Shown piece by piece: positions 42,001 to 64,000 of a DNA stretch of 64,000 nt; position 1 is the first letter of the stretch; the number at the start of each line of letters is the position of its first letter. The DNA lies in NCBI GenBank assembly GCA_013214525.1, contig JABSSG010000024.1:44754-108753 (forward strand), given 5' to 3'. Origin of the DNA: Rickettsiales bacterium (lineage in GTDB: Bacteria; Pseudomonadota; Alphaproteobacteria; Rickettsiales; JABSSG01). A program made the position numbers.

Positions 42001-45000
42001 GCAACCCCATATATAGTAATAAATCAAGGAACTAGATTAAAAGTATTCGTAAATCAAGATATCAAATTTCCTAAAAATATCAATTCATCAATACTCGTAA
42101 AATGACGAATGCAGCATTAGAGACTTTTTTACTACCTTTCCATAAGTTATTTGCTGAAAGTGATGTTTCAGAAATTTCTGTTAACTCCCCAGGAGAAGCA
42201 TGGGTAGAAGCACATGGAGAAATGAGGGTAGAAAAAATTCCTGAACTTGATCTCAATCATTTAACAAATTTAGGCAAACTTATCGCACAATCTACAGATC
42301 AAATGATCAGTGAAGAAAAACCTTTACTCTCTGCAACACTCCCAAACGGTTACCGTATTCAAGTTGTTTTTCCTCCAGCAGCAGAAATGGGCAAAGTGGT
42401 TTTATCAATCCGAAAAGGAGCCGTTACTAAACTTAATTTAGAAAGCTATGAAAAAATGGGAGCTTTTGCTAATACTACAAATGTTACAAAAAAAAATCCA
42501 ATTGATGATATTTTATTGAAGCATTTACAGAACGGAGAAATAAAACTATTTATCCGCACAGCTGTTAAATTTAAAAAAAATTTATTAATTAGTGGTGGAA
42601 CTTCCAGTGGTAAAACTACTTTTGCTAATGCCGCACTACTAGAGATCCCTAGTGATGAGAGGCTTATCACTGTAGAGGATGCTAGAGAAGTTCAGTTACC
42701 TAATAATAAAAATAGAGTACATTTACTAGCATCAAGAGGAGATCAAGGGTTAGCTCAAGTTACAACTCAGGACTTGATAGAAGCATGTTTGCGACTTAGA
42801 CCAGATAGAATTATAGTAGGAGAATTAAGAGGTGCAGAAGCTTTCGGTTTTTTAAGAGCTGTTAACACTGGCCATCCTGGTTCAATCACTACTATCCATG
42901 CTGATTCACCTGCAATGTCCTTCGAACAATTAAAATTAATGGTAATGCAAGCTGGCTTAGGTATGCCACCTGATGAGGTTAAATCATATGTAAGCTCAGT
43001 AATTGATATCGTAATACAACTAAAAAGAGGAGACAAAGGAGTTAGGTATGTGTCTGAAATATATTTTAAAGAAGATCCAAACAGAAAAAAATAGTTACTT
43101 ATCTACATGAAAATTAAAAATATAACTTCCAGATTATTAATTATCTTAACAGGTTTTGCTTCTGCTATCATTTTATCATCTATATTATTTATTTATCTAA
43201 CCTACGGTCCACAATACATACAGTTAACAAATTTTGGTTCAGAATACTTAGCTCGCAACTACGAGATGTTTGTATTCTTATGGCAACAAATTATATATTA
43301 CATTAACTGGATGATCCAAAATAAAACTTTAGTTTCTTTTAGTGCCAACTCTTATTTAGCTGCAAAAGTCTTTGGAGTACCAAGTTTAGTATTTTCAATA
43401 TTTGGAATAATTCTTATTGCAAAATATGAAAATCTAATGGAATGGACACCTTTTAAGAAAAAAGAGAAAATTTATGGAGATGCAAAATGGGCTTCCCAAG
43501 AAGATGTAAAACGAGCAAAATTACGAGCAAAAACAGGTTTGCTTTTAGGAAAAGATAACAAAGGAAATTATGTTTCTAGTGGATATCAGCATGCCTTACT
43601 TTTTGCACCTACCGGTTCTGGAAAAGGTGTAGGTTTTGTTATCCCTAATTTATTATTTTGGGAAGACTCTTGTTTAGTGCATGATATTAAACTTGAAAAT
43701 TTCGAATTAACCAGCGGATGGCGAACAAAAGGCTTAGGACAACAATGCTTTTTATGGAATCCTACCGATCCAGATGGAAAAACACATTGCTATAATCCCA
43801 TGGATTGGATTAGTACAAAACCTGGACAAATGGTGGATGACGTACAAAAAATGGCCAATCTACTTTTACAAAAAGCAACAGACTTCTGGGAAAGTGAAGC
43901 AAGAAGCTTATTTGTAGGAATAGCTTTATATCTATGTGCTGTGCCTGAAAAAATAAAATCTTTTGGTGAAGTTGTTAGAACAATAAGAAGCGATGACGTC
44001 GCTTATAATTTAGCAGTTGTTTTAGACACAGTAGGCAAACAAATTCATCCAGTAGCTTATATGAACCTTGCTGCATTTTTACAAAAAGCAGATAAAGAAA
44101 GATCTGGTGTGATATCTACTTTAAGCTCCGCATTAGAATTATGGGCAAACCCATTAGTGGATGCAGCAACAGCTAAAAGTGACTTCAATATGCAAGAATT
44201 GAAAAAGAAAAGAATGACTATTTATGTTGGTCTTACTCCAGATAACATAACAAGATTAAAAAAATTGATGCAGGTGTTTTATCAACAAGCAACAGATTTC
44301 CTAACAAGAAAAATTCCTGATGATAAAGAAGAACCATATGGTGTTTTATTTATTATGGATGAGTTCCCTACCTTAGGAAAAATGGAAGCCTTTAAATCTG
44401 GTATCGCATATTTCAGAGGATATAAAGTAAGACTATTTCTAATAGTTCAAGATACACAGCAACTAAAAGGTATTTACGAAGAATCTGGCATGAATTCTTT
44501 CTTATCAAACTCTTATTATCGAATAACTTTTGCTGCTAATAATATGGACACTGCTAATTTAATTTCCAAACTTTGTGGAAATAAAACTGTAGAATCTATA
44601 TCTGAAACCAGACCTAAATTTTTAGATTTTAGTCCTGGAGGAAAATCACAAAATGTTTCTAAAACTTCAAGAGCATTATTATTACCTCAGGAAGTATTGA
44701 CACTTTCAAGAGATGAACAAATCGTATTGATTGAATCATTCCCACCTATCAAATCTAAAAAAATAAAATATTATCAAGATAGTTTTTTCACTGAAAAACT
44801 ATTGCCACATATTGAAGTACCTCGCCAAAAACCATATAACCCTGATGACCTTGCAGAACCTGCAGACGAAAACTCTGAAGGCACTGAAGAAACAGAAGAA
44901 GAACTAGAAACAGAAGAATAAATTAAATCACCACTACTCTATTTATAATTGCAAACAATTGCCCTTTTTGTTATAAAAAACTACTTACAAATAATCTTAT

Positions 45001-63000: not shown

Positions 63001-64000
63001 ACATTAAGAATGTTACAAAAAGAATAATGATCGAAGTGATACGACAAAAACCTAAGAAAGAAAGTGCCATTTCACTAGGTTTACCAATACCCTCTCTAAC
63101 AAACTCATCATGAAATTTTTTCTCTTTAGCTTCAATATAACCAATAACACGGTAATAACATATCCAAAGCACAATCACTACAAAGTTAAATGGTGCTAAT
63201 TTCATATTTGTTCCTTTCAATGCAAACTCAGCATTACTGGAACGAACAGCAATAATAACATCAACAAATTCTACTGCTGCTGTAGCAAACATAAGTATAG
63301 AGGCTGCTTTATATACTGGGTTTGCATATTTTGTAGTGTCAAAACTTCTTTTTTTCTCTTTTTGCAAAAAACGTAAAAAAGATAAGTTCTTCAGTCTTGG
63401 AGCAACAGTTAATAAAAATACCCCTTCCAAAAGACATATAATCAACCAACTAAAATGCCCCTTAGATTGCTCTTCAAACCACAATATACCACGCCAGACT
63501 TCAAGAAAAATTGACATAAAATTATTGTATCAATTAGAAATAGTCATCTGCAACTTATGCTTGTTAATTATTTTAGCAAGTTCAAACATGATTTGTTGTT
63601 CTAGCTGCAAAAATTCAAATTTTTTAGTAGCTGTTGTAAATGCATTAATTTTACATTTAACAGAACTCTCTTTAAATTCAGAGATAAAGCAATCAATTTC
63701 TTTGTTACTATCAATACTTGAATGTTTAACAAGAGATTCTCTAATTTTTTCTAAAATATTTGTAATTTTCTTTACATCTACGGACTTTAATTCAATCGTT
63801 TTATTTATATTACGATGAGTGATCCTTGAATAATTCTCAACCACCATATTTGAAAAAAAAGAATTAGAGATGTAAATACAACTAGTTTGATGAGTTCTAA
63901 TTTTCGTAGTTCGCCAACCAATATGTTCTACTTTTCCTTCTTTGCCATTAGATAATTTTACCCAATCCCCTATTGAGAAAGGCTTGTCTAAAAAAACAAT

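Follow-up and report, generated by a model that had tools for sequence, protein, structure and literature searches.

Diverged YnaI-type MscS-like genes, two of them without the cytoplasmic cage domain, beside type IV secretion genes of a Rickettsiales bacterium

Introduction

The cytoplasmic alpha/beta domain, or cage, is held to be part of every MscS-like mechanosensitive channel except TcMscS (2025 TcMscS structure paper). TcMscS of Trypanosoma cruzi (165 aa, PDB 9BGQ) has no alpha/beta domain and is a tension-gated heptamer (PMC8282336, PMC12334622). A second compact protein, MscS2 of the intracellular microsporidian Nematocida displodere, has nothing but the third transmembrane (TM) helix, TM3, and the beta domain, yet assembles into a heptamer; its phylum has enlarged the mscS family despite extreme genome reduction (PMC11262690). 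These two proteins suggest that TM3 plus the beta domain suffices for a heptameric channel. The cage-less design has so far been described only in these two eukaryotic parasites, and no description of a bacterial cage-less MscS was found in the literature consulted on this family. Here we analyze four MscS-like open reading frames (ORFs), called M1 to M4, two of which lack the cage. They lie in a stretch of 64,000 nucleotides from a Rickettsiales bacterium (GenBank assembly GCA_013214525.1, contig JABSSG010000024.1, positions 44,754 to 108,753 of the forward strand), which we call the window.

Results

Four MscS-like paralogues

M1, a 318-aa cage-less paralogue, is encoded on the + strand at 44999..45955. 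The other three genes stand in tandem on the - strand: M2, a long divergent paralogue (60921..62399 from an ATG codon, 492 aa, or to 62456 from a GTG codon, 511 aa); M3, a second cage-less paralogue of 312 aa (62579..63517); and a fragment of M4 (63530..64000), the C-terminal 156 codons of a 347-aa MscS protein of the YnaI type. The full M4 gene is found at 8945-9988 of L083, a stretch of the same scaffold that reaches 10 kb past the window end; the window and these 10 kb together cover ~74 kb of the 307-kb scaffold. The original prediction had put four MscS ORFs at these positions, and both the ORF calls and the Pfam model of the MscS beta domain (PF00924, gathering cutoff 20.2 bits) agree. 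The scores were 36.1 bits for M1, 48.2 for M2, 42.0 for M3, 55.4 for the M4 fragment and 68.3 for full-length M4. A hidden Markov model built from the common core of the four ORFs matched just M1 to M4 in the window.

The prediction had also counted the short forms as MscS homologues, and independent comparisons bear this out. In a sequence search of the PDB the best solved relative was E. coli YnaI (E 2e-13 with the paralogue profile and 3.6e-12 with M3 alone), the match to the profile spanning YnaI chain residues 46-234. When M1 to M3 were aligned by hhalign to a 14-sequence profile of canonical YnaI-like channels of ~350 aa (built from M4 plus matches from the large searches described below), the probabilities were 98.5-99.5%. 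A structural model of M1 made with AlphaFold2 (AF2) served solely to assign secondary structure and to run a coarse fold search; in the latter, a Foldseek comparison with the PDB, all top 35 hits were MscS-family chains, with YnaI and MscS in the lead and TcMscS at rank 35. Given these results we regard the MscS paralogy of the four ORFs as close to certain. Note that none of the NCBIfam equivalog models for MscS, YnaI, MscK or MscM came near its cutoff (best scores 21-41 bits versus cutoffs of 321-991).

The paralogues are strongly diverged. M1 to M3 are mutually ~30% identical (29% over 280 aa for M1 versus M3), and an expansion of four diverged MscS-like genes, three in tandem and two without the cage, stands as originally proposed. 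The pore-lining TM3 (TM3a, kink and TM3b, directly before the beta domain) is covered by the alignments to both YnaI and MscS. At the positions of YnaI L154 and M158, which form its hydrophobic gate (PMC8137935), M1 to M3 have Ala/Thr and Phe, respectively. The same residues are found in the canonical M4 and in P0007, a canonical homologue of 356 aa, so the gate of M1 to M3 is of the type normal for the subfamily.

A motif in the membrane paddle, FDLTDINK, is identical in M1 (45239-45262, aa 81-88) and M2 (61908-61931, aa 176-183 of the 511-aa frame); the M3 counterpart is FDTTKYAN. Canonical YnaI-like paddles have the WD..P motif at the corresponding place. The DNA encoding it matches at 19/24 nucleotides and all five differences are synonymous, which argues for selection. 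Recent gene conversion, the other origin considered, was rejected owing to those five synonymous differences within 24 nucleotides. Recent horizontal transfer of the paralogues was likewise unsupported, as the GC and GC3 values of the four MscS genes match those of the adjacent genes.

M1 and M3 end shortly after the beta domain

An alpha/beta domain is absent from M1 and M3 and present in M4; in M2 it was recognized by hhalign only. M1 is composed of about five to six hydrophobic segments, the pore helix TM3, the beta domain and an acidic tail, and stops 27 residues past the NYK that closes its beta domain. Its hhalign match (98.5%) covers residues 98-293 of 318 and enters the canonical profile at column 79. 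The AF2 model gives helices at residues 195-214 and 216-231, with a break at 215, followed by four beta strands. M3 consists of a YnaI-like membrane domain, TM3, a beta domain and a basic amphipathic tail that runs 44 residues past the NYS of the beta domain. Its match (99.5%) takes in residues 16-271 of 311 and profile columns 23-266. The aligned stretch thus extends from the first paddle helix to just beyond the beta domain, indicating that the alpha/beta domain is lacking. Against E. coli MscS (EcMscS), residues 166-280 of M3 align to residues 83-193 and the alignment stops at EcMscS 193. In contrast, M2 and M4 extend ~100 residues past the beta domain. Hence the 318-aa and 312-aa proteins do stop after the beta domain as had been claimed, and the reported replacement of the conserved Gly-Asp (GD) by Asn-Glu (NE) in the shorter one was seen again, M3 having FWLNERV in place of the F.IGD of the other paralogues.

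No remnant of an alpha/beta domain was found downstream of M1 or M3, either by three-frame reading or by tblastn with the C-terminal domains of M2 and M4, and therefore the domain loss is old. On the same grounds we rejected the idea that M1 and M3 arose by a recent frameshift or truncation. In DNA where 7% of codons over all frames are stops, an open frame of 318 codons such as that of M1 has a probability of 8e-11, and the value for M1 or M3 is ~1e-10.

M3 is under purifying selection

An orthologue of M3 was found in a sister genome from another metagenome assembly, ERZ25068685. This protein, P0003, has 304 aa and is 74% identical to M3. The ratio of nonsynonymous to synonymous substitution rates (dN/dS, Nei-Gojobori) between the two genes is 0.15 overall; TM3 plus the beta domain give 0.07 and the tail gives 0.18. 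M3 evolves under purifying selection and, having an orthologue of about equal length and so low a dN/dS, is not a decaying gene. The tail has a net charge of +8 in M3 and +9 in P0003, and both proteins keep an amphipathic stretch, SD(R/K)FISKIK.TI.KAFKK, with a hydrophobic moment of ~0.6 (0.63 for the M3 tail). The P0003 gene sits between rpsL-rpsG and rplS, away from type IV secretion system (T4SS) genes, and no other MscS gene was found within 10 kb of it.

M2 and M4 retain the C-terminal domain

In M2, extra N-terminal TM helices precede TM3 and the beta domain, and the alpha/beta domain that comes after them is divergent; hhalign (99.25%) aligned the protein through that domain to residue 483 of 492. 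The gene calls for M2 differ, being 492 aa in the ENA and Logan assemblies versus 377 aa at NCBI. Upstream of the NCBI start lies a stop-free stretch of 134 codons that would occur by chance with a probability of ~6e-5 and that holds hydrophobic segments, which favors the long form. For the open frame of 492 codons the chance is 2e-16.

The complete M4 gene matches PF21088 and PF00924. PF21082, a model of the C-terminal domain, is matched by M4 alone among the four ORFs, the fragment scoring 21.6 bits. Identity with P0007 is 46% over 328 aa and continues through the C-terminus. Judged by sequence, M4 is an ordinary conserved MscS of the YnaI type. The prediction would have failed had the genes proved to be ordinary conserved single-copy orthologues of those in related genomes, and M4 alone looks like one. 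A deoC-like gene overlaps M4 by 8 nucleotides and only 12 nucleotides separate M4 from M3. The deoC-like gene, M4, M3 and M2 are probably one transcription unit.

Distribution of the paralogues

The diverged paralogues are restricted to their lineage. A word-seeded search of 5.8 billion protein clusters returned for M1 and M2 only the proteins themselves, and for M3 only the sister orthologue plus one weak canonical match. When 1.84 billion representative proteins were searched exhaustively with a profile, the three matches at E <=1e-30 were all members of the query. The next match was P0006 (288 aa, E 3e-22) and nearly all others were canonical proteins of 340-380 aa; no representative came nearer to M1 or M2 than ~E 1e-22. 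P0006 ends ~20 residues past its beta domain, and where the GD would stand it reads FWIND, an FW.N(D/E) motif like that of M3. It shows the cage-less architecture in a third organism. In a neighbor-joining tree of the core, M1, M2, M3, P0003 and P0006 cluster together, with a weak bootstrap of 46%. The distances exceed one substitution per site, indicating that the duplications are old or that the proteins evolve fast.

Three further MscS-like proteins, encoded on long prokaryotic contigs, end right after the beta domain: P0044 (271 aa, on a 323-kb contig), P0051 (168 aa, on a 90-kb contig, with a second 168-aa member on another contig) and P0070 (156 aa, on a 15.5-kb contig). In some of these the TM helices number just about two. 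MscS proteins of cage-less or miniature form may thus be scattered among prokaryotes.

As background for the gene number we used 80 loci from marine metagenomes, found by a core-based scan. These are generic YnaI-like loci of diverse bacteria rather than orthologues, and in none of the 80 was a second MscS-like ORF found within 8 kb. The transporter table of Orientia tsutsugamushi lists a single mechanosensitive channel (PMC2408715). Tandem MscS genes are generally uncommon, and by both comparisons the expansion is unusual.

Source and genomic surroundings

The window is AT-rich (GC ~30%). The 307-kb scaffold, BOEU19-1_SAMN09765703, was assembled from run SRR7648327 of sample SAMN09765703. A study of marine diatom-diazotroph symbioses (PMC8831587) names this run under its available data, and from this the sample appears to be a marine metagenome. 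The MscS gene order is identical across three assemblies, all from one apparently marine sample, which speaks against misassembly. On the + strand of the window the ORF layout shows a virB8-virB9-virB10-virB11-virD4 operon. Its last gene, virD4 (43107..44921, +), encodes the T4SS coupling protein, which scores 983.6 bits with the Rickettsia-type VirD4 equivalog NF010472 of NCBIfam (cutoff 728). The closest VirD4 among 185,579 species-representative genomes is 66-67% identical at most, and hence the organism belongs to a deep, uncultured lineage.

M1 directly follows virD4 on the same strand as originally noted, although the spacer (44922..44998, +) measures 77 nucleotides rather than the 78 bp given then. 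It was scanned for a terminator-like hairpin and none was seen. A single weak promoter-like match (9/12) lies at 44968-44995; across the region the number of such matches equals that in shuffled sequence. Promoter and terminator scans were therefore rejected as evidence, since in such AT-rich DNA their match counts are at the shuffled-sequence level. Read-through from virD4 into M1 would be possible.

A second T4SS cluster, virB3-virB4-virB6-(44-aa ORF)-virB6, lies beyond the right end of the window (L083 1959-7482, - strand of the window). On one strand of L083 the order is a sodium:solute symporter (SSF) gene, virB3, virB4, virB6, the small ORF, virB6, an SMR transporter gene and the deoC-like aldolase gene, then M4 (347 aa), M3, M2, efp and suhB. 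The two T4SS clusters converge on a region of ~20 kb that contains all four MscS-like genes, and each of them runs into such genes.

For comparison, we inspected virD4 loci of 80 Rickettsiales species. None had an MscS-like ORF within 10 kb of virD4, and hence the adjacency is lineage-specific. In L001 and L002, which have the nearest operons of equal layout, convergent genes follow virD4. Co-location of MscS-like genes with virD4 or virB genes is thus not conserved in relatives. As a separate observation, virB8-virB11 homologues (blastp, 1e-8) were found directly upstream of virD4 in three of these 80 loci (L001, L002 and L010). In most of these loci, which come from aquatic metagenome-assembled genomes, virD4 seems to be apart from virB8-virB11, or the neighbors are too diverged to detect.

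Other genes nearby

Three SSF genes lie within ~35 kb: 46357-48819 (+), 56027-58783 (+) and L083 310-1659. They encode three forms, a plain protein of 449 aa, a sensor kinase of 918 aa in which SSF is fused to HisKA and HATPase_c, and an 820-aa protein in which SSF is followed by a C-terminal extension of ~370 aa. This extension has more hydrophobic segments and no family match; the protein may be related to the fusion but lack the kinase. Identity between the two long proteins, 27%, is confined to the SSF part. Together the SSF and MscS genes make up a cluster for solute uptake and release.

Two small ORFs of the window lack a Pfam or NCBIfam match, and both are gene-called in public assemblies. 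One (45964-46239, -) is convergent on M1 and encodes 91 aa, among them a long hydrophobic stretch and a tail of basic and acidic character. The other (58966-59439, -) encodes a lysine-rich protein of 157 aa and adjoins suhB. At 50652-52859 (-) the window encodes a full-length bifunctional protein of the RelA/SpoT type (735 aa) with the Pfam domains HD, RelA_SpoT, TGS and ACT. In classical Rickettsia the spoT genes are split or fragmentary. The full-length gene suggests a less reduced genome.

Discussion

A lineage-specific family of valves

We think it probable that these genes, taken as a whole, make up a lineage-specific YnaI-type MscS family of tension-gated valves, some of them cage-less. 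That M1 to M4 form heptamers, how they are gated and what they do for the cell we infer from sequence and by analogy. M4 would be the ancestral-type valve, with a membrane paddle, the TM3 pore helix, a beta domain and an alpha/beta cage. M1 to M3 would be old, fast-diverged paralogues, M1 having come to lie ~15 kb away behind virD4. M2 would have acquired its extra N-terminal helices while keeping a cage domain in divergent form. From M1 and M3 the alpha/beta domain has been lost cleanly. Each protein is expected to form a homoheptamer in which the TM3 helices line a pore shut by a hydrophobic gate, which membrane tension would open. The permeation path of M1 and M3 would stop at the ring of beta domains, with neither a cytoplasmic vestibule nor side portals, as in the solved structure of TcMscS, a channel that responds to tension all the same. 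The four valves might differ in threshold, conductance or inactivation, an arrangement that would serve a cell moving between seawater, a host and other osmotic settings.

Several points weigh against this picture. The kink glycine of TM3 is replaced by Ser or Tyr, and M1 and M2 show the glycine/alanine packing pattern of TM3a less strongly than M3 and M4 do. M1 and M2 lack an orthologue, and selection was measured for M3 only. The AF2 model of M1, for which six sequences were supplied, is of low confidence (mean predicted local distance difference test score, pLDDT, 52; 55-71 in the core), and that of M3, made from a four-sequence alignment, had a mean pLDDT of only 40 and was not used. The paralogue count covers ~74 kb of the 307-kb scaffold. 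Finally, Schumann et al. in 2004, a study to which PMC11262690 refers on C-terminal truncations, reportedly found E. coli MscS with large C-terminal deletions to be unstable or not inserted into the membrane, so that a bacterial cage-less channel may need compensating features.

The short proteins could also be read as something other than channels in their own right. That M1 and M3 are truncated remnants heading for loss, with M4 and perhaps M2 as the working channel, seems unlikely to us. Truncated genes do accumulate in reduced genomes, and M1 has no orthologue anywhere, a His at the conserved TM3b Asn and a glycine-poor TM3a. Against this stand the similar length of the sister orthologue of M3 and its low dN/dS, which extends into the tail, together with two long frames that have stayed open in stop-rich DNA. 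The core motifs of both proteins are intact, the missing domain has left no trace downstream, indicating an old loss, and P0006 of a third organism is built alike. We find it doubtful, too, that the cage-less proteins act as subunits in heteroheptamers with M4 or M2, or as tension sensors or regulators that tune the canonical channels. M3 does lie between M4 and M2 on the same strand and may be co-produced with them, TM3 and the beta domain are both the oligomerization core and the best conserved part, and an altered function for the compact form has also been proposed by the authors of the microsporidian MscS2 study (PMC11262690). However, the solved structures found in the PDB searches are all homoheptamers (seven chains of one sequence), the cores of the paralogues are merely ~30% identical, and the sister orthologue of M3 stands alone among ribosomal protein genes.

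The link of the MscS-like genes to type IV secretion is weak. A tie to the rvh T4SS, with co-transcription of virD4 and M1 and with MscS-like genes that share its regulation or encode secreted substrates, could draw on the short, hairpin-free spacer after virD4, on the position of the tandem array behind virB3-virB4-virB6-virB6-SMR-deoC on one strand and on the strongly basic C-terminal tail of M3. In this the M3 tail resembles the positively charged tails of VirB/D4 substrates. We nevertheless judge such a tie very unlikely. None of the 80 other virD4 loci has an MscS-like ORF within 10 kb, the nearest operons of equal layout are followed by convergent genes, the M3 orthologue of the sister genome is not near T4SS genes and the M1 tail is acidic. 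Moreover, both clusters converge on one and the same region and hence the two adjacencies are not independent. Still more improbable, in our view, is that the cage-less paralogues were recruited to the rvh T4SS instead of serving as osmotic valves, M3 perhaps even as a pore delivered by VirB/D4 into the host membrane.

Comparison with known channels

The preferred reading of M1 to M4 as a family of YnaI-type valves has its closest counterpart in YnaI itself (PDB 6URT, 5Y4O, 6ZYD), a channel with five TM helices. Its alignment with M1 to M3 takes in the outer paddle helices as well as both parts of TM3 (TM3a, TM3b) and the beta domain. The YnaI paddle motif (K/T)xxxWD..P is recognizable in the paralogues as FD.T...(K/N)P. 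M4 belongs to the YnaI family. Additional N-terminal helices homologous to the YnaI paddle, seen in the alignments of M1 and M3, are a mark of the YnaI-type subfamily; no NCBIfam equivalog cutoff is reached. In contrast to YnaI, M1 and M3 lack the alpha/beta domain and the C-terminal barrel, M2 has about three extra hydrophobic segments at its N-terminus, and the gate is composed of Ala/Thr plus Phe in M1 to M3 rather than Leu plus Met. With E. coli MscS (PDB 2OAU, 6RLD) the proteins share the core fold of TM3 and beta domain; in that channel three TM helices are combined with a full alpha/beta cage and, at the C-terminus, a beta barrel.

TcMscS resembles M1 and M3 in lacking the alpha/beta domain, in an alignment to EcMscS that ends at the beta domain and in a Phe gate. 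It also has a short C-terminal tail proposed to be an amphipathic helix, and M3 has such a tail. However, TcMscS has two short helices that do not span the bilayer, whereas M1 and M3 have a full multi-helix paddle of four to six hydrophobic segments. M1 to M3 are also nearer to YnaI (E 2e-13) than to TcMscS, the last-ranked of the Foldseek hits to the M1 model, or to PDB chains of 171 aa (~1e-4). As their sequences are far closer to YnaI, M1 and M3 have lost the cage independently of TcMscS. They thus share with the miniature cage-less MscS proteins the absence of the alpha/beta domain, but neither a membrane part of at most two helices nor common descent. MscS2 has additionally lost TM1 and TM2 and is a eukaryotic protein acquired from bacteria, whereas M1 and M3 are bacterial and retain the sensor paddle. 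The locus would add a bacterial case to the microsporidian pattern in which reduced genomes expand the mscS family. M1, M3, P0003 and P0006 would be bacterial proteins that have lost only the cage while keeping the full sensor paddle, and as such a natural experiment in which the share of the cage in conductance, selectivity, inactivation and stability could be told apart from that of the membrane domain.

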